The notes: generated by a model not told the origin, from the letters alone. A stretch of DNA of 33,654 bases from an uncultured Desulfatiglans sp. (GCA_964547435.1 CAZJOB010000003.1:4093-37746); one strand, 5' to 3'; numbered from the stretch's first letter, positions 1 to 26,543 are shown. Numbers and translations are program-made.

Positions 1-1141
1 TTCCCGGGCCTATGATGCCCATATCATACATCTTCTTCATATACCAGCCCAGGGCCGAGTATGCCGGAACCTCGGGTTGAATCGGGAAATCCGGATTATG
101 ATTGGTGGGAAATGACATGGGTCCCTGAAAACAGGTTTCCATGCCGTTTATTCCAAGCTGCTGAACAATGTCGGTTCCTTTCCGGTTCCATCTGGTTAAC
201 TCCGGGCCTCTGGGATCCAGGCTGCCTGCGTCGGTAGCAGTGAGACTGAACCATGTTGATTCGGCGCAGTCATCGGAATCCTGACTGTACGCACGATCCC
301 GGTTATGACATTTTCTCTGCTGGCCACAGCCAATACAGGCCGATCCGACCGATTGGCCGCCGAATCCTGCGAAACCGGGCCCCGACGGCCAGTTCTTTTC
401 ATACCAATCCCTGGCGTCTTTTAATCCCTTTGGGTCGGCTATCTTTATTCCCTTTGTTCCAACAACAGCAACGGCCTTAAGGTTTTTGGATCCGAATACA
501 CCTCCGAATCCTCCCTGTCCGGCGCCGCTGCCGCCTCCGTGTATCAGAGAAGCGACCCTGGTCATATTTTCACCAGCGGCTCCGATGGTTACAATAGCAG
601 GTCTTTGAATAGTATATCTACCGTCTATTTCCTGCCACTGCTGGCCATATCGAATGCCTGATTTCTTCCATATCTCTTCCTCGCATTCCCATGTTGTAAG
701 ACCCCACAGGTCTTTAGCATCTTCAATTGTTACCTTATCGTCTACAATATTTATATAAACCGGAGAATCCGCCCTTCCGATCACCGCCACGCCATCCCAT
801 CCGGCCATCTTCATAAAGGTGGAAAACATACCGCCGAAATTGCTGTGACCGAACCACTGTATCGGGTAACACTGGGGAGATAAACCTGAAACACTCGTCC
901 TGGCCCCCCATGGAACCCCGGTTCCGCTGACAGGTCCGGTAATGAGAGAAACCATATTTTTAGGATTAAAGGCGTCCTTAAGATCCCAGTCTCCCGGAAG
1001 AACGCAAAACTCCCAGAAAAGGGCCGTGGCAATTCCGTGTCCTCCGCCGTATGGTTCATATTTTTCTGTGTCTAATGCCCTTATCTCTTTATTCGTAAGA
1101 TTAACTAATAATAATTTTCCGCCATATCCTGGTGTAGCCAT
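1..1141 (-). CDS. Aldehyde:ferredoxin oxidoreductase (AOR) family tungsto/molybdopterin enzyme; N-terminal 380 codons, 3' end lies outside the window
   Basis: It is absent from the ORF track because it runs off the window edge. My translation from ATG 1141-1139 (AAGGAG 7 nt upstream) stays open to position 2. It reads MATPGYGGKLLLVNLTNKEIRALDTEKYEPYGGGHGIATALFWEF...GSKNLKAVAVVGTKGIKIADP...SACIGCGQQRKC... The N-terminal domain and Cys cluster are typical of AOR-family enzymes. No signal peptide is present. Confidence 0.8.
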   Translation of the reverse strand, partial: MATPGYGGKLLLVNLTNKEIRALDTEKYEPYGGGHGIATALFWEFCVLPGDWDLKDAFNPKNMVSLITGPVSGTGVPWGARTSVSGLSPQCYPIQWFGHSNFGGMFSTFMKMAGWDGVAVIGRADSPVYINIVDDKVTIEDAKDLWGLTTWECEEEIWKKSGIRYGQQWQEIDGRYTIQRPAIVTIGAAGENMTRVASLIHGGGSGAGQGGFGGVFGSKNLKAVAVVGTKGIKIADPKGLKDARDWYEKNWPSGPGFAGFGGQSVGSACIGCGQQRKCHNRDRAYSQDSDDCAESTWFSLTATDAGSLDPRGPELTRWNRKGTDIVQQLGINGMETCFQGPMSFPTNHNPDFPIQPEVPAYSALGWYMKKMYDMGIIGPG

Positions 1142-1158: not shown

Positions 1159-1875
1159 TTACTCTTTAGCCTTGGGTTTAGCAAACGGGAAAGCCGGCAT
1201 CGGCTTTCTGGGCGGCTGCAGGTTCCGGTCATATCCATTGATATCGGTCTGATCAGGGAGTTCATCCACAACCTTCAAGGCGTTCGCGACGCAGGCCTCT
1301 ACGCAGGCCTGTGAGCCATTTATTCCGCCTTTTTTGTTATAATAGGGAGTATCTGTGCATAAATCACACTTCATGGCTTTTTCTGTAACATGATTCCATA
1401 TCGGTCTATGCGGTATAAACGGGCAGGATTGTATGCATGTCTTACAGCCTATGCATTCATCCGCGTTGATCATTCTTATGTTGCCGTTTTCAGCGCTTAT
1501 ATGACACGCCCCTGTGGGACAATTTTTAACGCATAGAGGGTCCGGACACTGCCGGCAAAGGTTTATCTGAATATCAAAGGGATATTCATCAAGAACATTC
1601 CTATGAACCTGTATTCGCGACAGGGACAGATTGACTACACCCTCGTGAACAAGAGAGCATGAGATCATGCAGCCGTAACATCCGGCGCAGTTTTTGCTGT
1701 CACAGACCAGATATTTGGTTGACAGCGGGTATTCCTCCTTTGCTTCTGCTGCCGTGGGAGAACAGACAGCAAGGGCGGTTCCCGCAATCGCGGTACCCCC
1801 AATAGTCAGAAAATCACGCCTTGAATATTCCCTTTTTTCGGTTTTGTCGGGCACTTTTTTAAGGTCTTTTGACAT
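1159..1875 (-). CDS. Tat-signal 4x[4Fe-4S] ferredoxin-like electron-transfer subunit (DmsB/NrfC/HybA/YdhX type)
   Basis: This is the ORF-track frame. I prefer ATG 1875 (GGAGG 8 nt upstream) over the GTG at 1884. The twin-arginine motif SRRDFL is followed by a hydrophobic region and AEA. Four Cys groups are present: CAGCYGCMISC, CRQCPDPLCVKNCP, CIGCKTCIQSCP and CDLC...CVEAC. The gene ends 17 nt upstream of the AOR gene. Confidence 0.85.
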   Translation of the reverse strand: MSKDLKKVPDKTEKREYSRRDFLTIGGTAIAGTALAVCSPTAAEAKEEYPLSTKYLVCDSKNCAGCYGCMISCSLVHEGVVNLSLSRIQVHRNVLDEYPFDIQINLCRQCPDPLCVKNCPTGACHISAENGNIRMINADECIGCKTCIQSCPFIPHRPIWNHVTEKAMKCDLCTDTPYYNKKGGINGSQACVEACVANALKVVDELPDQTDINGYDRNLQPPRKPMPAFPFAKPKAKE

Positions 1876-2175
1876 GAATGACACCTCCGTAAATGAACTT
1901 GTTATTATATATCGACCTTTCGAACATTCGAATAAATCCTTTTCTTATCTGTAACAACTCCGGTATCTCGATCACTTGCGAATAAATGAAGGCACTCGGC
2001 GTCATAGATAACAAGAATTTACAGTTATATTAGTATAGGAATATATATTATGCATGTCAAGAAAGATATGGGATTAAAAATTGGCGGGAAAAGACCATAT
2101 ATCAAAATAAAATGATGCTAAACTGCATTTTTACCCTTCAAAAAGATTAAATAGGTTACGATTGATAGAATACGA

Positions 2176-2215: not shown

Positions 2216-3175
2216 TCACCGGATATTCTGTATCTCCTCGGACATTCCCTGCTCATAGGTGCTCCACCCGGAATTCAGGCCGAAGGCGCCTCTAAGAAAA
2301 ACAGCCTCAATCCGACGAATATTTCCCTTTTCAATCTTGAACAGCTCTGCTATCTGCCAGGTCCAGTTGATCGAGTGATGGTCAAAAAAACCGAACGCGA
2401 AGACTATTCCGCGTTCCCTGTCCACCGCGACAAAGCGGCGGTCGCGAATACGTGTGACAATGCCTGCCAGTTGTCCCGACTCAAACTGTGCCTTGCAATT
2501 GGTCTGTGTGGTCTGCATGCCGTTTTCAAAACGTTCGCAGTCATCTGTGAAAGGATAGTATCCCTTGCCGTCGTTTCTCTGCAGGCCCTCGAAATAATAG
2601 TCCGCAATCTTGACGAGTTCTTCCCGTGACATGCGTTCTTCTTCAGGTATGACCTCAGTGTAGACCTTATGAGGAGCTCCCATCTTTTCAACCGCCTCTC
2701 CGGTCGGAGGAAAGCGTGAGGGCTTCTGTTCCTCTTCTTCAAAAAGACTCGTCTCGGGACGTATCACAAGCTGTTCCGCCTCGCAGATCTTCCCGTTGTC
2801 GTCAATTTTCAAACGAATCGCGACGGCCGGCAGAGTCTCCTTTGCGTTCGGCCCGGCCCCGCCTCCTTCCTTGACTGTTCCAATATAGGCAATCTGACGG
2901 GTCTCCACATCAGGAACATAGAATTTATAGTTCCCCCTGCCTGTCATACTGTACCAGAGACCTTCACCGCCCAGGGGCAGTTGAACGCCGTTTTCTGTAA
3001 ATTTACAGTCCCTGGTAAAGAGTTCCAGGCTGGGATCATTGTTCATCATGGCGTCCATGTATTGATCAAGATAATTTTCCAGACACTCCCGGTCACAGAC
3101 CGGTTTATCACCCTGCGCAAAGGCCAATGGTGTCACGAACAATAATGCCGCGAAAATAAATACTCTCATCCTCAT
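2216..3175 (-). CDS. Exported protein of an uncharacterised paralog family, one module (P1)
   Basis: 319-aa ORF with AAGGAGG upstream. The signal peptide is MRMRVFIFAALLFVTPLAFA|QG. It is roughly 75% identical by eye to P2 and shares the module motifs CDRECL, F-x-ENG, GEGLW, RLKIDD..I.E.E, DDC.R.ENG and F.I..G.I..IEA. Confidence 0.85.
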   Translation of the reverse strand: MRMRVFIFAALLFVTPLAFAQGDKPVCDRECLENYLDQYMDAMMNNDPSLELFTRDCKFTENGVQLPLGGEGLWYSMTGRGNYKFYVPDVETRQIAYIGTVKEGGGAGPNAKETLPAVAIRLKIDDNGKICEAEQLVIRPETSLFEEEEQKPSRFPPTGEAVEKMGAPHKVYTEVIPEEERMSREELVKIADYYFEGLQRNDGKGYYPFTDDCERFENGMQTTQTNCKAQFESGQLAGIVTRIRDRRFVAVDRERGIVFAFGFFDHHSINWTWQIAELFKIEKGNIRRIEAVFLRGAFGLNSGWSTYEQGMSEEIQNIR

Positions 3176-3198
3176 AACACTCCTCCTTTATCTCTGTA

Positions 3199-4218
3199 TT
3201 ATCTGATGCTCTGAATCTCCTCGGAAATCCCCTGCTCGTATGTGCTCCATCCGGCATTCATTCCGAATGGACATTTGTGAAATACTGCTTCAATACGGCG
3301 GATAAGTCCGTTTTCGATCTTGAACAGTTCTGCCAACTGCCATGTAAAGTTTATGGAGTGATGATCAAAAAAACCAAATGCAAACACGATACCCCTCTCA
3401 CGGTCCACTGCCACAAACCTGCGGTCCCTGATTCTCGTAACAAAGCTGAGAAGCCCGGACTCGAACTGCTCCTTGCATCCCCAGGAAGCCGAATACATGG
3501 TCGAGGTTTTGGGATCGGGCCGTTTCTGGCCTTCCGGCACAGGAACATTCGTTGTCGGCATTCCATTTTCAATGCGATGACAATCATCTGTAAACGGGTA
3601 ATACCCCTTGCCGTCGTTCCTCTGCATACCCTCAAAGTAATAATTGGCCGCCTCGACAAGTTCTTCCCGTGACATGCGTTCTGCCTCCGGTATGACCTCG
3701 GTATATATCTTGTGGGGCGCACCCAATTTTTCGACGCTCTCGCCCGTGGGTGGAAACTGCATGCCGCCGCCTCCACCGCCGCCTAACATGCTTGTATCGG
3801 GACGTATAACGAGCTGTTCGGCTTCGCAAATCTTTCCGCTGTCATCTATCTTCAGACGAAGCGCGAAAGCTGAAATTGTGGCTTGTGCAGGAGGAGCGTC
3901 GCCCCCCTCTTTGACCGTTCCGATATATGCGACCTGCCTGGTCTCAATATCAGGCACGTAAAATTTATAGTTGCCCCTTCCTGACATGCTGAACCACAGC
4001 CCCTCGCCGCCCAGGGGCAGCCGAACGCCGTTTTCGGTAAATTTACAGTCTCTGGCAAAAAGTTCCGGGCCGGGGTCATTGGCCATCATTGAATCGAGAT
4101 ACCTGTCAACATAATTTTCCAGGCATGCCCGGTCACAGGTTGGTTTTACCGCATCCTGGGCATAGGAAACTGAACCAGTGAATAATATAACCGCAAAAAT
4201 CAATAGTCTCATTCGCAT
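3199..4218 (-). CDS. Exported protein of an uncharacterised paralog family, one module (P2)
   Basis: 339-aa ORF with AAGGAGG upstream. The signal peptide is MRMRLLIFAVILFTGSVSYA|QD. It is a tandem duplicate of P1, with a Gly7 linker and a 24-aa insertion relative to P1. Confidence 0.85.
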   Translation of the reverse strand: MRMRLLIFAVILFTGSVSYAQDAVKPTCDRACLENYVDRYLDSMMANDPGPELFARDCKFTENGVRLPLGGEGLWFSMSGRGNYKFYVPDIETRQVAYIGTVKEGGDAPPAQATISAFALRLKIDDSGKICEAEQLVIRPDTSMLGGGGGGGMQFPPTGESVEKLGAPHKIYTEVIPEAERMSREELVEAANYYFEGMQRNDGKGYYPFTDDCHRIENGMPTTNVPVPEGQKRPDPKTSTMYSASWGCKEQFESGLLSFVTRIRDRRFVAVDRERGIVFAFGFFDHHSINFTWQLAELFKIENGLIRRIEAVFHKCPFGMNAGWSTYEQGISEEIQSIR

Positions 4219-4241
4219 AGAAATCCTCCTTTATAAAGTGG

Positions 4242-4277
4242 CGTCCATTCAAAAAACGAATGTTTTTTGAATGGACG
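4242..4277 (-). promoter_or_regulatory. Perfect 16-bp intercistronic stem-loop between the selenoprotein candidate and P2
   Basis: cgtccattcaaaaaac-gaat-gttttttgaatggacg lies within the 71-nt gap. On the mRNA it sits just upstream of the P2 Shine-Dalgarno (..CCACUUUAUAAAGGAGG). No U-run follows it. Confidence 0.6.
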
Positions 4278-4289
4278 TCAGGTAGTTAT

Positions 4290-6020
4290 TTATCTCCACT
4301 CATCAACAGATGCACTCATCATATAGCTGAAATCCCCTGCCTGCCAGAACAGATTCGTCCCGCCGCCAAGGGATATTATGGTAATACTCTCAGGACGCGC
4401 GAACTGGGGAATCATTGCATCTTTCGGGAGCTTCATCCATGACGCGAAAGGTTCCTGCCCCATGCGGCCCATGGGAAGGATAAAATTCTGCACAGCATAA
4501 AAGTCATCCATCCAGTCTTCAACACTTACCTTTGTGTTCTTGTAGATCCATTCTATAAGCTGTTCCTTGGAATCAAACCCCTCATAGTCTTTCAACTGAT
4601 GTGTGATATTCGGATCCAGAAGAAGAGTCGCGGAGGAAAATGGGCTCACGAATTTCAGCCAGAAGGGTATCTGCGGGTGAAATGTCTTTTCCATGCTCTG
4701 GTCCGGATGTGTGAATCCCCATCCCAGAAACACGCTTACAGTGCTTTCTTCCGGTTTAAAGCCCTTCTGAACATGCAGAGGCTTCCATCCCGCGGGCAGT
4801 TCCTCTTCATTTTCAGCCATGCAGAGGTTGTTATAGTTATAGTTGTTGCCCTGACTGCCCATGTAGGTCTCACCAACCTTTCCGGATGCGCCCAGGTTGA
4901 TGGACATAAGGGTCCAGGCCCTTCCTATGACCGCGTTGGCGTGATTGAATGGCCCCAGGGCGCCTATTCCGGAATTCATGCCTATTTCGTTACGAACCGG
5001 ACCGTTCACAATCATCATGGTCGCGAAAGAGGTCGTGGATGTGGAAAGCGCGGTCATGCCCGTGGACGCCAGCGCCAGGATCACCGGAAAGTGCTCAGGT
5101 TTGGCCCCTGCCATTACGGCATTGACAGCAACCTTTTCCACCGTATAACTCCATAATTCATGAGGAGTAGATGGCTGCATCTTGCCCACCTCTTCATTCG
5201 CTCCGCGGCTTGTCCCCTGAAGCATCTCCGCGACTCTTTTTTCTGTGGGAAGCACAATGGGAAGCCCATCTGTCCACCCCTTTTCCAGAAACAGGCGATG
5301 CAGGTTTTCTTCTGTATTCTGTTCCACCAGTCTTGGCGTGGGTCTTTCAATAAACCCTGTCTTTTTGTCTTCACTGCCAAGCGGAACGGTAAGGGCATCA
5401 ATAATCATGTCAATGACAGGCCTTCCTGTAACCAGGTCATTTCCTTTCAGATATTTCCGGCATACCTCAGAGGTAGTGCCCGCTATAGGATGAGGCACAA
5501 ACGTAAAACGTTCATTGGGCATGCCCTTTTTATATGCGTAGGTTGTCACAAGTTCCCTGAATCTTATGGTGCTTATGGGTGCTGTGGGCACCCCAAGCTT
5601 TTCAACTGTCCAGCAGTGGCCGGCGACCGACGGCGCGCAGGTGCTTCAATGCCCCACGCCCATGATCATGCCGTGCCCCTTTTCCTTGATCTCAGCCCAC
5701 AGATCAGGGTCATCATTAAAATATGTCCCTATCTTTCTTCGTAAAACCCATGTGGTTGCCGGATATTTTTCCTGTAAAAGTTCCTTCAGTTCTGCCAGGA
5801 ACTGATCCGTGGCCGAAAAACCTATATCCACAATGTATATTGTTTTTCCTTTAAGGTCATCGATCCTTGGGGCCATGGGGACCCGTTCAATAGCCGGGGG
5901 CTGGCCCAGAGGATTAAGGACTGTGATTTCCGGTTCCTTTTCCCGGGACAGCGTCGATGAAGCCGTGATCGTGATCAATGCAACGAAAAACAACAACCCT
6001 ATATTAATGTTCTTTTTCAA
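4290..6020 (-). CDS. Candidate exported selenoprotein: GrdB/PrdB/'UGSC'-like U-x-x-C core fused to an unassigned C-terminal domain (TGA at 5646-5648 read as Sec)
   Basis: Track ORFs 5646..6056 and 4290..5591 share one frame and are separated only by TGA plus 18 open codons. The downstream ORF has only a GTG start and no SD. The junction reads GMIMGVGH-U-STCAPSVAGHCWTVEKLGVPT...FVPHPIAG. I prefer the TTG start at 6020 (AAGGAGG 6 nt upstream), which gives MKKNINIGLLFFVALITITASS. If the TGA is a true stop, these are two separate genes (136 aa and 433 aa). Confidence 0.6.
5610..5641 (-). promoter_or_regulatory. Candidate bacterial SECIS stem-loop
   Basis: In the mRNA after UGA, a GCCG/CGGC upper stem carries the apical loop UCGGUCGC, which starts 16 nt after the UGA. 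A lower CC.GC/GC.GG helix lies across an internal loop. I folded this by eye only. A second 6-bp hairpin, GGGUGC-CCACA-GCACCC, lies at 5577-5593. Confidence 0.3.
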
Positions 6021-6112
6021 AAGACGCCCTCCTTTTAAGACATTTAATTGGGTCAATCCTAATTTTTCAAAGGATTATGTCCTGTTTTAATTGAGAAATT
6101 TGCCAAGCAAGT

Positions 6113-6246
6113 ATCTACAGCCGTGCCCGGTGTCTGTCACCCTGAGCAAAGCGAAGGGTCTCTATTTTATGACCAGTCACATGCCGGATCATGCCATTCA
6201 GAATAACAGATTCATGAGAGATTCTTCGCTTCGCTCAGAATGACAT
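6113..6246 (+). repeat. Repeat family A, copy 1: MITE-like element of about 135 bp with imperfect terminal inverted repeats
   Basis: It is roughly 88% identical by eye to the reverse complement of 15869-15999. The ends, gtcaccctgagcaaagcgaagggtctc and gagattcttcgcttcgctcagaatgac, are inverted repeats of each other. Confidence 0.8.
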
Positions 6247-6305
6247 TTTTAAATTGCTCAGCATGCATCTGTGGATAACTCAATCATTGCGAATGCTGGA
6301 ATCCC

Positions 6306-6348
6306 ATAAAAATCTTGTACGGATTTGCATGAAAATCCGTACATAAGA
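6306..6348 (-). terminator. Intrinsic terminator after paralog P3
   Basis: The core stem gtacggattt/aaatccgtac (10 bp) extends to about 14 bp with one bulge. On the minus strand UUUUUAUGGG follows it directly. It lies about 80 nt after the P3 stop. Confidence 0.6.
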
Positions 6349-6425
6349 AATTGGTCTATCATACAATAATACTGTTAAATTAACGAGTTATGCCTTTTGA
6401 GCAATTCGAATATAGCCATTTAATC

Positions 6426-8327
6426 CTATTCCCAGCCGCTTGTCAGACCGGTTCCGGCGTAAAAATAACCGATTGCCTCTATATCATATATCTTCCCGTT
6501 CCGAATCTTATAGATATGGGCAGCAGGCAGTTCAAATGGACCCCACTCGTTTGGTCGTTCTGTGGTCCCCGGCACGCCCTTGATCTCCATTACCTTTGGT
6601 TCTCCGTTGTGGCGGAATATGGAAAAGGCGAATACAAGACCCTTTTCTTCATCAACGGCAAAGACACGCCTGTCGGTGATATCGGTAATATAGCTCATGA
6701 CCCCTGTGGTGAGCTGCTCCCCGCATTTCATCTTTCTGAACACCGAAAAGTCATCCTTTGCTGCCTCTTCCGGCGTCTGGGTCTGATCGTTCGCGCTAAT
6801 GCCGCCGTTCTCCCTGCGCTGGCATTCATCGGCAAATGGAGCTGCATCGCCGTTGTCCTGAAGGATTGCTTCGTAATATGAATTGGCGATCTCTATCATT
6901 CTTTCCCTGGGTATGCGCTCCATCTTTGGCTGTCTCTCCAGCAGAGCGGCCCGCACCTTTGACATGTTGGGATTTAAGGATTCCCCGGACTCATTATGAA
7001 TAACAAGGTGATCTATCTTCGTGATCATATGATCCTCCATCTTGAGCCTTATAGCCGCGATGGTCGGATTTTTATTCTCCTCAATCACACCCATAAATGC
7101 CACCTCACCGGCATCGGGATCAGCTACGATTATTCTGAAATCGGTCGGTCCTCCGGTCGCGGTCTTCCACAGCCCCTCACCAATGGAAATCTTTTTTGTG
7201 TTTTCCACAATTTTTACACCATCGGCAAGCGGAAGGCCCGCAGGGTCATTTTTGGCCAGGGAGGCAAGATACTGATCCATCTTTTCCTCCAGGCATTTTT
7301 TGTTGCAGTTCCAGCCGTCAGAGGCCTGGTATGGGACACCCACAATGGCCATTGCCTCGATCTCATAGATTTTGCCGTTTCGAATCTTATATATATGGGC
7401 AGCGGGAACAGTAAACTGGCCCCACTCGTTTTTACGTTCGGTCAGACCGGGCAGGTTTATAACCGGCATGGGGTCAGGTTCGCCATCATGGTTGAACATG
7501 GAATATACCATAACCAGTCCCATCTCCTCGTCTATGGCTACAGGACGAATCTGGTTGATATCCGTGATATACCTCCACATGCCCGTGTCCATCTGTTCCG
7601 CGCATGTCATCTTTAAGAAGGCCAGCATTCCGCCGGCAGATGTCATGTCTCCCTCCCCCATCTTTGGATCCTGATTATTGGCAGTGGTCATTCCGTTTTC
7701 ATTACGCTGGCATTCATCCGCAAAAGGCGCTGCCGCGCCGCTGTTCTGTTCAAGAGAATCATAATAGGCAAGCGCCGCCTTCAGCATCTTATAACGCGGA
7801 GTCTTTTCCGATTCATCCAGTTTTTCAATAAGTGCAGGACGCGGCTTTGTCAGACCTTCGGGCACAGCATCGCCAGCCATGGGAGATGACGCAGGAGAAA
7901 CCATGTGATCGATTTCGGTTATTTCACCCTTTTCAAGCTTCAGACGAGCGCCCACAAGAACCGGTTTTCCCTCGCTCTCCATAACTCCCATGAAACCGAT
8001 TCGTTCCTCAACAGGGTCAGCGACATAGATCTTGAAATCTGTCGGTCCCGCAGTGGCGGTTTTCCAGAGGCCCTCTCCAACCTTTATTGGCTGAATATTT
8101 TCCACAAACTTTGCATCGGCGGCAATAGGAATACCTGAAGGGTCATGCGCCACCAGTGCCGCAAGATATTGATCCATCAAATCAACCAGAGATGCCCGCA
8201 GATCAACCTGTTGTTCAGACTTGATCTCATCATCGGTCGCGGTGGGCTCTGTCTCCTTTTTTGAGCAGGAAAAATTTAATGTACACACAAAAAGAAAGAT
8301 AAATATCAGAATTGCTGTTTTTTTCAT
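6426..8327 (-). CDS. Exported (probably lipid-anchored) protein of the same paralog family, two tandem modules (P3)
   Basis: 633-aa ORF with AAGGAG upstream. The N-terminus is MKKTAILIFIFLFVCTLNFSC|SKKETE, a Cys after the hydrophobic region in a non-canonical lipobox. The second module starts at WNCNKKCLEEKMDQYL, and the protein ends in SGWE. Confidence 0.85.
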   Translation of the reverse strand: MKKTAILIFIFLFVCTLNFSCSKKETEPTATDDEIKSEQQVDLRASLVDLMDQYLAALVAHDPSGIPIAADAKFVENIQPIKVGEGLWKTATAGPTDFKIYVADPVEERIGFMGVMESEGKPVLVGARLKLEKGEITEIDHMVSPASSPMAGDAVPEGLTKPRPALIEKLDESEKTPRYKMLKAALAYYDSLEQNSGAAAPFADECQRNENGMTTANNQDPKMGEGDMTSAGGMLAFLKMTCAEQMDTGMWRYITDINQIRPVAIDEEMGLVMVYSMFNHDGEPDPMPVINLPGLTERKNEWGQFTVPAAHIYKIRNGKIYEIEAMAIVGVPYQASDGWNCNKKCLEEKMDQYLASLAKNDPAGLPLADGVKIVENTKKISIGEGLWKTATGGPTDFRIIVADPDAGEVAFMGVIEENKNPTIAAIRLKMEDHMITKIDHLVIHNESGESLNPNMSKVRAALLERQPKMERIPRERMIEIANSYYEAILQDNGDAAPFADECQRRENGGISANDQTQTPEEAAKDDFSVFRKMKCGEQLTTGVMSYITDITDRRVFAVDEEKGLVFAFSIFRHNGEPKVMEIKGVPGTTERPNEWGPFELPAAHIYKIRNGKIYDIEAIGYFYAGTGLTSGWE

Positions 8328-8350
8328 TTACTGCTCCTTTTTTTAAAAAA

Positions 8351-10198
8351 TTATTCCCAGCCGTTTGTTATGCCGTGTTCAGCCATAAATCCTATGGCCT
8401 CTATCTCATATATCCTGCCCTTGCGAATCTTGAAGACATGGGCTGCCGGAAGGTCAAAGGCGCCGTAATCATTTGAACGCTCGGTAACTCCGGGAACACC
8501 TGTGATCTTGATCACCTTTGGTTCACCGTCGTGACGGAATATGGAAAAGGCAAACGCCAGCCCTTTCTCCTCATCAATAGCCAGGATGCGCCTGTCCGTG
8601 ATATCGGTGATATATTCCCACACACCTGTATTCATCTGTTCCCCGCATTTCATTTGGCCGAAAACCGACAGTCCGGGATCTGCCCCTTTGGGCACAGGGG
8701 TGGTATCACCGGCGCTTATGCCGCCGTGTTCCCTCCTCTGGCATTCATCTGCAAAGGGCGCCACATCGCCGTTTCCCTGAAGAATCGCCTCATAATATGA
8801 ATTGGCGATCGCCTTCATGCGTTCCCGTGACACACGTTCCATCTTGGGCTGCCTCTCCAGAAGCGCGGGCCGCACAGCGGACATGTTTGAATGCAATGCC
8901 TCCCCGGACTCATTATGAATGACAAGGTGGTCTATCTTCGCAATCCTCTGGTTTTCCACCTTGAGCCGGATAGCGGCAATGGTCGGTTGATTATTCTCTT
9001 CGAGCACCCCCATAAAGGCTACTTCGCCTGAATCAGGATCGGCCACTACTATCTTGAAATTTGTGGGAACTCCGGTAGCTGTTTTCCAGAGACCCTCACC
9101 CACAGGGATCTTTTTTGTGTTTTCCACAAGCACTGCATTGTCAGCCAGAGGGACGCCGGCGATATCGTTCTTTGCCAGACCCTCCAGGTATTGATCCATC
9201 TTTTCTTCCAGGCATTTTCTGGTGCAGCTCCAGCCGTCAGAGGCCTGGTATGGTATGCCCAGGCAGGCGATTGCCTCGATCTCATAGATCTTACCTTTCC
9301 TTATCTTGTATATGTGCCCTGCTCCGACACTGAACTGTCCCCAGTCATTGGGACTTTGGGTAACACCGGGCATGTTTCTGACAGGCAAAGGATTCGGTTC
9401 GCCGTCATGGTTGAACATTGAAAAGGCCATGACCAGCCCCATCTCCTCATCCACGGCGAACAGCCGCCTTTGATTGATATCCGTTATATACGCCATAATT
9501 CCGGTGCTGAGCTGCTCCCCGCACTTCAATCTTCCGAATGCGGTCATAGCGCCAAAGGTAGTTTCAGCGTCATCAGGGACAGGTTCCTGATTATTGGCTG
9601 ATGTAATGCCGCCCTCATGTCTCTCGCACTCCTCGGCAAAGGGCGCCACCTTGCCGTCGCTCTGTTCTATGGCATCATAATATGCATTGGCCGCCTTCAG
9701 CATCTCTTCGCGTGAAACCCTTTCTGCCGGATCAAGTTTCTGAACCAGTCCGGGCCTTGGTTTCAGCAAACCTTCAGGAAGCGGGCCGTCAATTCTCCAT
9801 ATCATATGATCGATCTCAGTGATCTGATCATTCTCCAGCCTCAGGCGAACTGCCAGTTGAATCGGTTTTCCCTGGTCTTCAATCACACCCATAAAGCCCA
9901 CCTGCCCGGCGACCGGGTCTGCCACATAGATCTTATAATCGTTCGTACCGCCGGTTGAGGACTCCCAAAGGCCCTTGCCTATGGGTGTAACTACAGTGTT
10001 TTCCACAAGCTTTACATCAGCCGCGAGCGGAAGACCTGCGGAATCATGCTTTACCAGGGCAGTAAGATATTGATCCATCAGGTCAACCAGTTGCGCACGG
10101 GAGTCAACCTGTTTTTCAGTCTCTTTTTTTGAACATGAAAAATTTAAAAAACCACAGGCAAGGAAAACAAACAAAAGAAGAATAGATGCCTTTTTCAT
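8351..10198 (-). CDS. Exported (probably lipid-anchored) protein of the same paralog family, two tandem modules (P4)
   Basis: 615-aa ORF with AAGGAG upstream. The N-terminus is MKKASILLLFVFLACGFLNFSC|SKKETE. Its C-terminal module is roughly 75% identical by eye to that of P3, and the protein ends in NGWE. Confidence 0.85.
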   Translation of the reverse strand: MKKASILLLFVFLACGFLNFSCSKKETEKQVDSRAQLVDLMDQYLTALVKHDSAGLPLAADVKLVENTVVTPIGKGLWESSTGGTNDYKIYVADPVAGQVGFMGVIEDQGKPIQLAVRLRLENDQITEIDHMIWRIDGPLPEGLLKPRPGLVQKLDPAERVSREEMLKAANAYYDAIEQSDGKVAPFAEECERHEGGITSANNQEPVPDDAETTFGAMTAFGRLKCGEQLSTGIMAYITDINQRRLFAVDEEMGLVMAFSMFNHDGEPNPLPVRNMPGVTQSPNDWGQFSVGAGHIYKIRKGKIYEIEAIACLGIPYQASDGWSCTRKCLEEKMDQYLEGLAKNDIAGVPLADNAVLVENTKKIPVGEGLWKTATGVPTNFKIVVADPDSGEVAFMGVLEENNQPTIAAIRLKVENQRIAKIDHLVIHNESGEALHSNMSAVRPALLERQPKMERVSRERMKAIANSYYEAILQGNGDVAPFADECQRREHGGISAGDTTPVPKGADPGLSVFGQMKCGEQMNTGVWEYITDITDRRILAIDEEKGLAFAFSIFRHDGEPKVIKITGVPGVTERSNDYGAFDLPAAHVFKIRKGRIYEIEAIGFMAEHGITNGWE

Positions 10199-10282
10199 TC
10201 CATAACTCCTTTTTCAGATGATTTAACTGATAGCGTACAGCGTCCTTTAAAACAGATGATTTTATAAGAACATCTTTTCGCG

Positions 10283-11188
10283 TTATTCCCAACCGTATTT
10301 AGTGCCTGCGGGCACGATCTCACAGTATGCCTCTGCCGCGTGAATCAGGCCGTCATATATCTTAAAGGAGTGCCACACATCCAGCACCCCGTCGCCCTGA
10401 AAGGTGGATCCGGGACCGAAATTCATGCGCACCGCGACCACGCCCAGTTCTTCGTCCACTGCTATAACCCTGTGAGTGATGCCTGAAAGGGTGGGAATAA
10501 ACTGGGTCTTCATGTTGTCGCATCCCTCGAAAAAGGTGCACCCCGGCCCTGCCATAAGCTGCCCGTTTTCATAACGATACGCATCCACAGCCATGGGTGA
10601 GTCAACCTTTACAAAACTGCCGACCTTCAGACCCTCAGGATAGGTCAGGGCCATTTTAATCATCTCCTCCCTGGCAACCAGTTTTTCCCTTGCCGGAAAA
10701 GACAGCATGGTCTCGCTGGCAGTCTTCAGGTTCTCAAGGTTAAAAAGCATGCCCTCTTCCCGGTTTCTGACAACAGTGGTCTCTATCTCTGATATCTTCT
10801 GATCGTCGATCTTCAGTCTCATCACAAAAAGGACAGGAGATTTGGCCTCCTCTACTACAAGGAATGATACTGCCACACCCTGCTTTACATCAAGAATGTC
10901 CCTGCGGTAGCCTGTGAGTCCGGATATGTTTTCCCAGAGACCCTGTCCGAGTTTCATCTCTTTGCAGTCTTCGGTAAATTTTACATTGGCGGCAACAGGC
11001 AGGGATTCCGGTTTGTGAGCGATCATGGCATCCAGGTATCTTGTTATGAACCCGCTGAGACATTCACGGTCACACGCCTTATTAACAGATTTTGTTGTTG
11101 TTTCCTCTATTACTTTTACGTTTGATATGCAGCTGATCCCTGTTAGAAAAAACAGGACAATTATGGTGATTATGCCTTTTCTGAACAT
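10283..11188 (-). CDS. Exported protein of the same paralog family, one divergent module (P5)
   Basis: This is the track ORF trimmed to ATG 11188 (AAGGAGG 5 nt upstream), giving MFRKGIITIIVLFFLTGISC... It contains KACDRECLSGFITRYLDAM, GQGLW, RLKIDDQKISEIE and YRYENG, and ends in YGWE. Confidence 0.8.
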   Translation of the reverse strand: MFRKGIITIIVLFFLTGISCISNVKVIEETTTKSVNKACDRECLSGFITRYLDAMIAHKPESLPVAANVKFTEDCKEMKLGQGLWENISGLTGYRRDILDVKQGVAVSFLVVEEAKSPVLFVMRLKIDDQKISEIETTVVRNREEGMLFNLENLKTASETMLSFPAREKLVAREEMIKMALTYPEGLKVGSFVKVDSPMAVDAYRYENGQLMAGPGCTFFEGCDNMKTQFIPTLSGITHRVIAVDEELGVVAVRMNFGPGSTFQGDGVLDVWHSFKIYDGLIHAAEAYCEIVPAGTKYGWE

Positions 11189-11416
11189 TATTTCCTCCTT
11201 GGATATATGATGTGTGCGGAAAAATCTTTGTGATCTCTTCCTATATAACACTTTTTTTTAATAAACAAGATGGAAATACCGAAGGCTTTTTTCTGTTTTC
11301 CCTTCAGACTTCAGCCTAAACGCCTTCAGCCTATATCTGATTCCCCCACTGTAATTCATGGCATTTGGCAAGGTCATCTTTCTCTACAGTTTAAGCGACC
11401 AGACCCCTTAAATTTT

Positions 11417-12004: not shown

Positions 12005-12766
12005 TTAGCTTGTTAACACCTTTCTATCAAGCCCCCATTTTTGGAAAAGTTTTTTATACATTTCAGGCTGCTCAAAATCACCCATCTTGAGCATTGGTGA
12101 GCTTATGAAGTCAGCGCCTTCATCGAACAGCGGGGTCTTAAGGCCCCTGACAATCTCCCCCAGCATACCCGCCGGGATTGATGTAATAATCTCATCCTTT
12201 GCGCCTATTGTGCGCATGTCCTCGCCGATGTCGGGAGGGGCGATAAGGATCTGATTTTTTTCGATAACAGGCACAATGGTATAGGCGCAGGAAGGCGGGA
12301 AAAAATGTGAATTAATAGCAGGCTCCTCCCCGAACCAGTGCAGCGGCATGAGCATTGTCCTCATCTGGGACGGATCGGAATAGACAAGCACAAGATCCGG
12401 TTCAAATGAGGCTTTTTTGAGAGGAGCGGTAACAATGCCAATGTACCTGTCCTTTTCAAACCTGGGAAAACCCAGGAACCTCTGAATCTCCGGGTCATCC
12501 GGCTTATCCACAAGCCCGTATGCGATAAGAGGGGCAAAACACCAGTTGTCCTCCTTAAGCATAGCGACCGTTATTCCATCCCTTCGGGACATGGCAAACA
12601 CCTGGCACTGAGCAAGGTGAACGCCTTTGTCCCTTTTGGGTCTGAATGCCCCTTCGGGTATCTCTGCCTCATCTTTGAGCATCTTGACAGCTACAGGAAA
12701 AGATCTCAATTTGAGTATGGTTTCGAGCTCTTCTCCATAATTGTTATACTGTTCTATAGATGTCAT
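12005..12766 (-). CDS. DUF169 (COG2043) family protein
   Basis: 253-aa ORF. LRSFPVAVKML...GVHLAQCQVFAMSRRDG...WCFAPLIAYGL resembles DUF169 proteins as I remember them. Its start lies 1 nt after the fabD stop (TAGAATG). Confidence 0.65.
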   Translation of the reverse strand: MTSIEQYNNYGEELETILKLRSFPVAVKMLKDEAEIPEGAFRPKRDKGVHLAQCQVFAMSRRDGITVAMLKEDNWCFAPLIAYGLVDKPDDPEIQRFLGFPRFEKDRYIGIVTAPLKKASFEPDLVLVYSDPSQMRTMLMPLHWFGEEPAINSHFFPPSCAYTIVPVIEKNQILIAPPDIGEDMRTIGAKDEIITSIPAGMLGEIVRGLKTPLFDEGADFISSPMLKMGDFEQPEMYKKLFQKWGLDRKVLTS

Positions 12767-15290: not shown

Positions 15291-15367
15291 TGGTGGCGGT
15301 GACTGGATTTGAACCAGTGACTCCGCGGATATGAGCCGCGTGCTCTGACCAACTGAGCTACACCGCC
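15291..15367 (-). tRNA. tRNA with CAU anticodon (elongator Met, or Ile2 if lysidine-modified); CCA is encoded
   Basis: The reverse complement is GGCGGUGUAGCUCAGUUGGUCAGAGCACGCGGCUCAUAUCCGCGGAGUCACUGGUUCAAAUCCAGUCACCGCCACCA. It folds into a 7/4/5/5-bp cloverleaf with anticodon loop CUCAUAU. The G1-C72 pair argues against an initiator tRNA. Confidence 0.9.
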
Positions 15368-25787: not shown

Positions 25788-26543
25788 ATGACCAGAATCA
25801 GGCCGAGCGGCGGCTACAGGTCAACCGCCAGCTTTCAGACTGCAACTATAATTTATGATGCCACATACTGGTTTTGTGAAAAGTTTCTAAACCCTCATGG
25901 CCGCATGGCAGACCAGATGGTTCAGGCGGCGCGTTCGGGACGGCAGAATATTGCTGAGGGCAGCAGAGCGGCAGCCACATCCTCTCAAACCGAATTGCGC
26001 CTGCTTAATGTGGCGAGGGCCAGTTTGGAGGAACTGCTGCTTGACTTCGAAGACTTTCTTCGCCACCGGCATTTGATCCAATGGGCTCCTGATTCAGTGG
26101 AAGCGCGGGCCGTTCGCGGGGTTCCGAAGAGGTTCAAGACAAATCAGCCGGATCAGCCTGATTTGACGGATTTAACAGACCAGGCGCGGTGGGCCCTTTA
26201 CGCGCCCTGGCTGGATCACGATGACCCTGCTGTCCGATCCAATGCTATTATCTGTCTGATACATCAGGCAAATTTTCTGCTTGACCAACAGATTACGGCG
26301 CTCGAAAAGGGCTTTGTAGAAGAAGGCGGCTACAGCGAACAGCTTGCAGCCCAGAGGCTGGCATTCAGGGCAAAGAGAAAATCTGATCAGCAGGATCGGG
26401 CTGATCCGTCTGATCAGATTCCCTTTTGCCCGATCTGCGGCAAGACAATGGTGGTGAGGACCGCTAAAAGCGGTAAAAATGCAGGCAACCGCTTCTGGGG
26501 CTGCTCGGATTATCCGAATTGTAAAGGGGTTGTGAAGCTATGA
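25788..26543 (+). CDS. Four-helix-bundle protein (23S rRNA intervening-sequence protein / Avd-like family with 'suffix' domain) fused to a topoisomerase-type C4 zinc finger
   Basis: AGGAGG lies upstream. The sequence contains ...QMVQAARSGRQNIAEGS...LLNVARASLEELLLDFEDFL..., then FVEEGGYSEQLAAQRLAFR and low-complexity SDQ/PDL repeats. It ends CPICGKTMVVRTAKSGKNAGNRFWGCSDYPNCKG. Family names are from memory. Confidence 0.75.
   Translation: MTRIRPSGGYRSTASFQTATIIYDATYWFCEKFLNPHGRMADQMVQAARSGRQNIAEGSRAAATSSQTELRLLNVARASLEELLLDFEDFLRHRHLIQWAPDSVEARAVRGVPKRFKTNQPDQPDLTDLTDQARWALYAPWLDHDDPAVRSNAIICLIHQANFLLDQQITALEKGFVEEGGYSEQLAAQRLAFRAKRKSDQQDRADPSDQIPFCPICGKTMVVRTAKSGKNAGNRFWGCSDYPNCKGVVKL

Follow-up and report, generated by a model that had tools for sequence, protein, structure and literature searches.

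The closest described relatives, by structure, of the proteins studied here are enzymes of the NTF2 fold. Lsd19 and MonBI/MonBII, polyether epoxide hydrolases/cyclases, are built from tandem NTF2 domains, and Lsd19 carries catalytic Asp/Glu/Tyr pairs. Limonene-1,2-epoxide hydrolase (LEH) is a single-domain protein that uses Tyr53, Asn55, Arg99, Asp101 and Asp132, among them an Asp-Arg-Asp triad. Here we describe a cluster of five genes, P1 to P5, located on a 33,654-nucleotide stretch of DNA from an uncultured Desulfatiglans sp. (GCA_964547435.1 CAZJOB010000003.1:4093-37746; this whole stretch is called the window below). Their products are, almost beyond doubt, NTF2-like/SnoaL-like double cones belonging to the Pfam family PF26061, whose entry name is DUF8021. 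They are accompanied by genes for a selenoprotein of the UGSC family and for an aldehyde:ferredoxin oxidoreductase (AOR) with a ferredoxin that bears a twin-arginine (Tat) signal. The SRRDFL motif of this ferredoxin and the YdhV-like AOR match the definition of the class V (Tat-exported, YdhV/YdhY type) W/Mo oxidoreductases, for which a 2026 survey reports neither a known activity nor a known physiological role (PMC13328260).

The DUF8021 genes, their modules and predicted fold

A family hidden Markov model (HMM), built from 112 members none of which lies in the window, detects exactly seven modules across the five open reading frames (ORFs), each with E <= 7e-59 (P1, 5e-93), and none elsewhere in the window. 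In all-vs-all BLASTP the single-module proteins match P3 twice and P4 twice, over the residue ranges given in Table 1. P1 and P2 share 70% identity (E 5e-180) and P3 and P4 65% (E 0), and within each of these adjacent pairs the genes are separated by 23 nt. Across subfamilies identity falls to 27-32% (E 1e-19 to 1e-41), the same range that P5 shows against the other modules (E 1e-19 to 1e-27), and 33 columns are invariant in the seven-module alignment. The mechanical ORF of P5 reaches a GTG at 11251; we prefer the ATG at 11188 as its start because an AAGGAGG ribosome-binding site precedes it, with the ATG 6 nt past the site. Together the five ORFs occupy 6,636 nt, or 19.7% of the window. A first-pass annotation, made from the sequence alone, had delimited the same five homologous ORFs, with two modules each in P3 and P4 and a divergent single module in P5, and had put them at about 6.6 kb or 20% of the window, all of which agrees with our measurements; it had also recognized the adjacent duplicate pairs, and only its estimate of about 75% identity for them was slightly high.

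That annotation regarded the family as unnamed, and this did not hold: PF26061 is already precomputed on database proteins identical to P2 (P0001), P1 (P0095), P4 (P0122) and P3 (P0192), and P5 is assigned by proxy through the family HMM (Table 1). Direct Pfam and NCBIfam scans of P1-P5 gave nothing significant, the Pfam set scanned being one without the PF26061 model. The family is large. In a profile search against 1.84 billion representatives, E <= 1e-3 was reached by 4,352 clusters (at 50% identity) and E <= 1e-10 by 2,620 of these. Every source-given name among the members is "hypothetical protein", and no characterised family was matched, a match that the first-pass annotation would have counted against its finding. 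The multi-module architecture, which could be taken for a speciality of the window, is widespread, since two-module proteins (~610-630 aa) are common and three-module proteins (895-898 aa) exist. Examples of the latter are P0170, P0180 and a gene at 4361-7057 of locus L084. Hosts include uncultured Desulfatiglans/Desulfatiglandales, Desulfobacteraceae, Acidobacteriota, Gammaproteobacteria including Steroidobacteraceae, and a Phycisphaerae metagenome-assembled genome (MAG), with several DUF8021 loci per genome and at least 5 in one Desulfatiglans MAG.

Each ~300-aa module is the product of an ancient internal duplication. When the N-terminal and C-terminal halves were aligned profile to profile with hhalign, they matched with a probability of 96% and E 3.9e-9 (26% identity over 104 columns). 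This alignment superposes Y40 on Y194 (a helix Tyr), E62-N63-G64 on E217-N218-G219 (the E-N-G turn), D90 on D272 (a strand end) and E134 on E310 (the last strand). An AlphaFold2 model of P2, made from a 42-sequence alignment (pLDDT 84.8, pTM 0.83), has two cone domains of the alpha+beta type, spanning roughly residues 28-140 and 158-318, each with a long helix followed by 4-5 strands, and a disordered Gly-rich linker between them. The linker and the C-terminal cone differ within the P1/P2 pair: P2 has a seven-Gly run (residues 146-152) where P1 has a Glu-rich EEEEQK, and an insertion of ~24 aa in the C-terminal cone of P2 is absent from P1.

In Foldseek searches the top PDB matches of the P2 model were Lsd19 (4rzm, 3rga) and MonBI-MonBII (9kw6, 9kw8), with E 5e-7 to 2e-5 and probability 1.0. 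These were followed by designed curved-sheet NTF2 proteins, SdnG, LEH, NsrQ and KSI-fold proteins, with E ~1e-3 for LEH, SdnG and NsrQ and 2e-3 for a KSI-fold protein, and the single NTF2-domain matches, likewise at probability 1.0, reached target-normalised TM values of 0.55-0.66. The model thus presents the helices packed on a curved antiparallel sheet that define an NTF2-like/SnoaL-like fold. At the sequence level, SnoaL_2 gave weak matches in 7 of 116 members (best E 7e-4), SnoaL_2 or SnoaL appeared below threshold in 8 of 116, and P3 has a sub-threshold Pfam SnoaL-like match (E 0.028). As each module consists of two cones and there are seven modules, the locus encodes 14 NTF2-like cones.

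The five proteins are very probably extracytoplasmic. All of them begin with a basic n-region followed by a strongly hydrophobic h-region, and a hydrophobic N-terminus is present in 339 of the 374 family members that begin with M. P1 and P2 have type-I signal peptides, ending AFA|Q and SYA|Q respectively, and look like soluble periplasmic proteins. P3, P4 and P5 are probably lipoproteins, since a Cys follows directly on the h-region (NFSC in P3 and P4, GISC in P5), with boxes that are non-canonical: compared with the lipobox [LVI][ASTVI][GAS]C, the LNFSC of P3/P4 and the TGISC of P5 deviate at -2 and -3. Moreover, the four Cys conserved across the family form two pairs that vary together, C28/C32 and C213/C248, and the N-terminal pair is lost jointly from the first modules of P3 and P4 (P3A, P4A). 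Such pairing would fit disulfide bonds in an extracytoplasmic protein. In this sense, three further proposals of the first-pass annotation, namely the two related halves of each module, the tandem NTF2/SnoaL-like folds that it had offered as a guess, and the N-terminal export signals of all five proteins, are supported by the half-to-half alignment, by the P2 model with its structural and weak SnoaL_2 matches, and by the n- and h-regions.

The paralogue set is old. In a Thermodesulfobacteriota single-cell genome (L083/L034) we found orthologues of P1 (71%), P3 (79%), P4 (72%) and P2 (77%), which surround the same UGSC gene as in the window. Since these cross-genome orthologues are more alike than the window pairs (70% and 65%), the duplications must be older than the split of these organisms and the set has been maintained, which argues for distinct, retained functions. 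For copy number, 82 loci were compared, the window being one of them: it has 5 genes, L034 has 4, and 70 other loci have 1 or 2.

Proposed function and genomic context

Among 116-119 diverse members, the residues Y40, E62, N63, D90, R121, E132 and E134 of the N-terminal cone and Y194, R215, E217, N218, D272 and E310 of the C-terminal cone are kept at 87-99%. This polar conservation stands against a paralogue identity of only ~30%, and the Tyr, Glu-Asn, Asp and Glu sets are equivalent in both cones. Each cone would form a small-molecule pocket, and we consider it likely that these are pocket proteins. The modules may be acid/base enzymes that need no cofactor and act as hydrolases, isomerases or (retro-)aldol/lyase enzymes, which is what their closest structural relatives, LEH, Lsd19/MonB and SnoaL, do. 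The invariant polar residues together with the enzyme-type structural neighbours favour catalysis over pure binding, and we give a catalytic role a chance that is close to even, if on the lower side. The modules would act on organic substrates outside the cytoplasm, each paralogue with its own specificity, and would work upstream of or beside the periplasmic redox enzymes of the cluster, the Tat-exported class V AOR/WOR and the UGSC-type selenoprotein. A possible route may be that the modules generate or present carbonyl compounds that the AOR oxidises before import, and products or ligands might be shared with both the periplasmic AOR and the UGSC selenoprotein of the locus. Functional coupling to AOR and UGSC in this locus is possible and somewhat doubtful. 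Overall, our best reading, put forward tentatively and with rather less than even confidence, is that DUF8021 modules are cofactor-free periplasmic acid/base enzymes, or else carriers of ligands, that operate alongside periplasmic redox enzymes.

Neighbourhoods in other genomes were surveyed at 75 loci, counting neighbours within 5 kb; the survey was centred on P2-like genes, so that its statistics mainly reflect the P1/P2 subfamily. A second DUF8021 gene is present in 27 of the 75 loci (36%), a gene with the UGSC C-terminal domain in 11 (15%) and an AOR in 6 (8%); among loci of at least 15 kb the counts are 7/42 for UGSC and 4/42 for AOR. The same TGA-split UGSC gene as in the window adjoins DUF8021 in 11 of the 75 related loci. 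Some gene orders recur. A DUF8021 gene, a spacer of ~330-420 nt, a Tat-signal ferredoxin and an AOR follow each other in the window, L003 and L009, the order ferredoxin-AOR-DUF8021 occurs in L088 and AOR-DUF8021 in L032, and every ferredoxin partner has a twin-arginine (RR) motif. Four loci (L063, L067, L081, L085) share the order DUF8021, DsbA-like protein, major facilitator superfamily (MFS) transporter and UGSC. L084 contains a DUF8021 gene of 333 aa, a three-module one of 898 aa directly upstream of the UGSC gene, the UGSC gene itself, and three TonB-dependent receptor genes flanking them; taken together, L084 and L085 show the DUF8021-UGSC genes in the company of TonB-dependent receptors, an MFS transporter and a DsbA-like protein. 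Other recurrent neighbours are short-chain dehydrogenases/reductases (SDRs), SnoaL_4 lipoproteins, MoaF-like proteins, flavoenzymes of the old yellow enzyme (OYE) type, a xanthine-dehydrogenase-type Mo subunit, tannase-like esterases, amidohydrolases, MarR regulators and sensor kinases. They fit a theme of extracytoplasmic or catabolic processing, with no single partner common to all.

The associations with AOR and UGSC are real, but they are motifs of one sub-lineage and do not define DUF8021 as a whole. The first-pass annotation had asked whether the family always co-occurs with the TGA-containing gene and/or AOR genes, and the answer is negative: both are recurrent partners in a minority of loci. 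It had also held that a family scattered over genomes without a conserved neighbourhood would speak against its finding; contexts are indeed heterogeneous, and recurrent motifs do exist, so that the finding is weakened and not overturned.

Several observations weigh against the reading of DUF8021 as periplasmic acid/base enzymes coupled to redox partners. On the structural side, the whole-chain TM values of the P2 model to Lsd19/MonB are only 0.26-0.36, with root-mean-square deviations of 15-18 A (Foldseek), and the cones are therefore packed differently from those of Lsd19/MonB. E132 and E134 could be inter-domain salt bridges instead of catalytic residues. Neither half showed similarity to the LEH sequence by hhalign (probability <1%, with an LEH query whose five catalytic positions were confirmed), and no PDB entry is a sequence relative of DUF8021, as searches of the PDB with P2 alone, the seven-module profile and the 116-member profile returned only chance matches. 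Also, no papers on PF26061 or DUF8021 were found in the literature, no member having been studied. On the genomic side, 85% of the related loci are without UGSC and 92% without AOR, neighbourhoods are heterogeneous, and two of three two-module homologues on long contigs lie in unrelated contexts. Seen from the other partner, among metagenome loci of the UGSC type, gathered with the UGSC C-terminal domain, a DUF8021 gene occurs in 1 of 80, or in 1 of 29 when only loci of at least 10 kb are considered. On the count of 1 in 80, an obligate DUF8021-UGSC system was rejected. Finally, lipoprotein status and TonB-receptor neighbours fit a binding role equally well.

The main rival takes up this last point. 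The modules would be non-catalytic ligand-binding or carrier cups, as periplasmic or surface lipoproteins, that capture hydrophobic or aromatic substrates and pass them on among TonB-dependent receptors of the outer membrane, enzymes of the periplasm and MFS importers, with the multi-module forms providing capacity or avidity. Domains of the NTF2 fold often serve purely as scaffolds for binding. In agreement with a carrier role, P3-P5 have a lipoprotein-like Cys right after the h-region, TonB-dependent receptors flank DUF8021 in L084 (three of them), L022, L051 and L003, MFS transporters are adjacent in L063, L067, L081 and L085, and multiplication to 2 or 3 modules per chain is more typical of binders than of enzymes. 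However, near-invariant polar and charged residues at ~30% identity would be unusual for binders of diverse ligands, unless the ligands share one chemical group; the nearest structural neighbours are enzymes, and TonB receptors are found within 5 kb in only 3 of the 75 loci. We regard carriers as unlikely.

The two other alternatives are minor. DUF8021 might serve no common system: the window would be a chance pile-up of paralogues, drawn from a family that is large, mobile and quick to duplicate and whose members work independently of one another in unrelated ways, and adjacency to AOR and UGSC would be incidental. The variable contexts (SDRs, sensor kinases, MarR, amidohydrolases, tannase-like esterases, extracytoplasmic function (ECF) sigma factors) and the frequent tandem duplication, with at least 2 copies in 27 of 75 loci, point this way. 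A chance pile-up is made improbable by the single-cell genome L083/L034, where the same four paralogue types are kept together with UGSC and orthologues are closer than paralogues, by the 23-nt spacing within pairs, which suggests co-transcription, and by the size of the window cluster, the largest among the 82 loci. That the proteins are accessory, docking or maturation subunits of the class V AOR/WOR or of the UGSC selenoprotein, without handling substrate, is very improbable: despite the tight, repeated order with Tat-ferredoxin and AOR (window, L003, L009, L032, L088) or with UGSC (L022, L034/L083, L063, L067, L081, L084, L085), and despite the diverse, poorly understood extra subunits of class V WORs, a class with no assigned function (PMC13328260), neither partner is near most DUF8021 genes, almost all UGSC-type loci are without DUF8021, and the many DUF8021 loci per genome (at least 5 in one Desulfatiglans MAG) are far above what is expected for dedicated subunits.

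Returning to periplasmic acid/base enzymes, a wider version would make DUF8021 the missing substrate-processing or delivery partners of the class V W/Mo oxidoreductases and of the UGSC-fusion selenoprotein, forming a new extracytoplasmic catabolic/redox system of anaerobic sediment bacteria (Desulfatiglandales, Acidobacteriota and others). Diversified, cofactor-free NTF2-type enzymes would in that case turn imported organics into aldehydes or carbonyls, which would then be oxidised outside the cytoplasm. We see this wider version as a long shot. The functional link to AOR/UGSC remains a minority association, and nothing found here overturns expectation. If the modules are enzymes, DUF8021 would represent a large untapped set of cofactor-free periplasmic biocatalysts, whose sources are uncultured anaerobic degraders of recalcitrant organic matter. 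The recurrent pairing with Tat-exported AOR/WOR offers a concrete handle on the substrates of that class. The size of the family, the expansion to 14 cones and the repeated occurrence next to class V enzymes and the selenoprotein make the locus a reasonable target for structural and biochemical work.

The selenoprotein gene and other features of the window

Read along the minus strand, the order of the features collected in Table 1 is DUF169, P5, P4, P3, hairpin, UGSC, hairpin, P2, P1, Tat-ferredoxin and AOR.

Table 1. Positions of the DUF8021 genes, their modules and the features around them, in coordinates of the window.
Feature	Position	Strand	Description
AOR (W/Mo pterin)	1..1141	minus	N-terminal 380 aa; cut by window edge
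Poly-[4Fe-4S] ferredoxin	1159..1884	minus	Tat signal (SRRDFL); small subunit of periplasm-facing AOR/WOR
P1	2216..3175	minus	319 aa; single DUF8021 module, two NTF2-like cone domains
P2	3199..4218	minus	339 aa; single DUF8021 module; Gly7 inter-domain linker; modelled protein
Palindromic hairpin	4239..4280	.	perfect, 19 bp, 4-nt loop; between UGSC stop codon and P2 ribosome-binding site
UGSC-family selenoprotein gene	4290..6056	minus	between P3 and P2; in-frame TGA 5646-5648; motif H-U-S-T-C (...GVGH-U-STC...)
Terminator-like hairpin with T-tract	6316..6343	minus	after P3, before UGSC gene; from consensus scan and sequence only
P3	6426..8327	minus	633 aa; two modules
P3 module B	6426..7310	minus	aa 340-633; family HMM domain E 6e-109
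P3 module A	7311..8327	minus	aa 1-339; signal peptide and probable lipobox Cys (LNFSC); domain E 7e-108
P4	8351..10198	minus	615 aa; two modules
P4 module B	8351..9229	minus	aa 324-615; family HMM domain E 9e-108
P4 module A	9230..10198	minus	aa 1-323; signal peptide and probable lipobox Cys; domain E 1e-108
P5	10283..11188	minus	301 aa; divergent single DUF8021 module; probable lipoprotein (LTGISC); family HMM E 2e-61
DUF169 gene	12005..12766	minus	upstream of cluster; 750-nt gap, then P5

The UGSC gene is read through a UGA codon: Pfam UGSC matches lie on both sides of the TGA, and there is a match to the NCBIfam UGSC_fam with E 4e-19. Downstream of the TGA a SECIS-like hairpin can be drawn, but its folding is no better than that of shuffled sequence. 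The protein has an N-terminal hydrophobic signal or anchor and is fused to a highly conserved C-terminal domain of ~390 aa without a Pfam entry, which has >7,900 homologues, with 70-87% identity among the top matches; most database entries, at ~410 aa, are truncated at the TGA. We could not derive a function from this C-terminal domain, as its homologues are all "hypothetical" and the AlphaFold2 model is moderate (pLDDT 71), with no PDB fold match at E < 0.5 in Foldseek. In soil and peat metagenomes the UGSC gene is often multi-copy per locus (118 copies in 65 loci).

The AOR of the window matches NCBIfam PRK09849 (YdhV-type AOR, E 2e-50). A search of the class V survey for NTF2 and SnoaL found nothing, and DUF8021 is not among the class V subunits described there (PMC13328260). 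Neighbours found in the window are AOR, ferredoxin, UGSC, DUF169, FabD, ETF and PPDK, with no polyketide synthase or epoxidase among them. As for transcription, the hairpin that follows P3 suggests that P5, P4 and P3 form one transcription unit. The palindromic hairpin before P2 has no clear T-tract after it on the coding strand; it could serve in mRNA processing or stability, or act as a partial terminator. The 330-nt spacer between P1 and the ferredoxin gene contains a sigma-70-like promoter (11/12) at 2060-2032.

A DUF169 gene also occurs in L001, an unrelated 5.8-Mb genome, at 3209-3976, ~6 kb from a tandem DUF8021 pair and together with MarR, MoaF-like and SnoaL_4 genes. Farther from the cluster, a tRNA-Met (CAT) at 15291-15367 on the minus strand is the sole Rfam or ARAGORN match in the window, and an ORF of 251 aa at 25788-26543 on the plus strand joins a weak match to a 23S rRNA intervening-sequence protein with a topoisomerase-type C4 zinc ribbon, an unusual domain pairing.

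Comparison with known NTF2-fold enzymes and with other DUF8021 loci

Like the window modules, Lsd19 and MonBI/MonBII have two paired cones per unit, with acidic and Tyr residues. Sequence identity between them and the window modules is only 10-14%, and the geometry between domains is different. Furthermore, Lsd19 and MonB work in the cytoplasm and are encoded in polyketide clusters of Streptomyces, whereas the window proteins are exported and come from anaerobic sediment bacteria, with no polyether cluster nearby. Membership in the Lsd19/MonB family was thus ruled out by the lack of sequence homology, the different geometry, the export and the absence of a polyether gene cluster.

LEH and the SnoaL-like enzymes (1nu3, SdnG 7xsi, NsrQ 7f10, KSI-fold proteins) are single-domain proteins, on which each cone superposes at the TM of 0.55-0.66 given above. 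The conserved Tyr, Asn, Asp, Arg and Glu set of the window modules may be reminiscent of the LEH residues. Compared with LEH and the SnoaL-like enzymes, the window modules are fused double domains, exported and multiplied, and have no detectable sequence homology to them.

The relatives in the rest of DUF8021 resemble the window proteins in length, in having a signal peptide and in their architectures of one, two or three modules. The locus is an example of an already catalogued and wholly uncharacterised family, not a new kind of system, and it stands apart from other DUF8021 loci not in kind but in number, with the most copies (5 genes, 7 modules) of all those compared.

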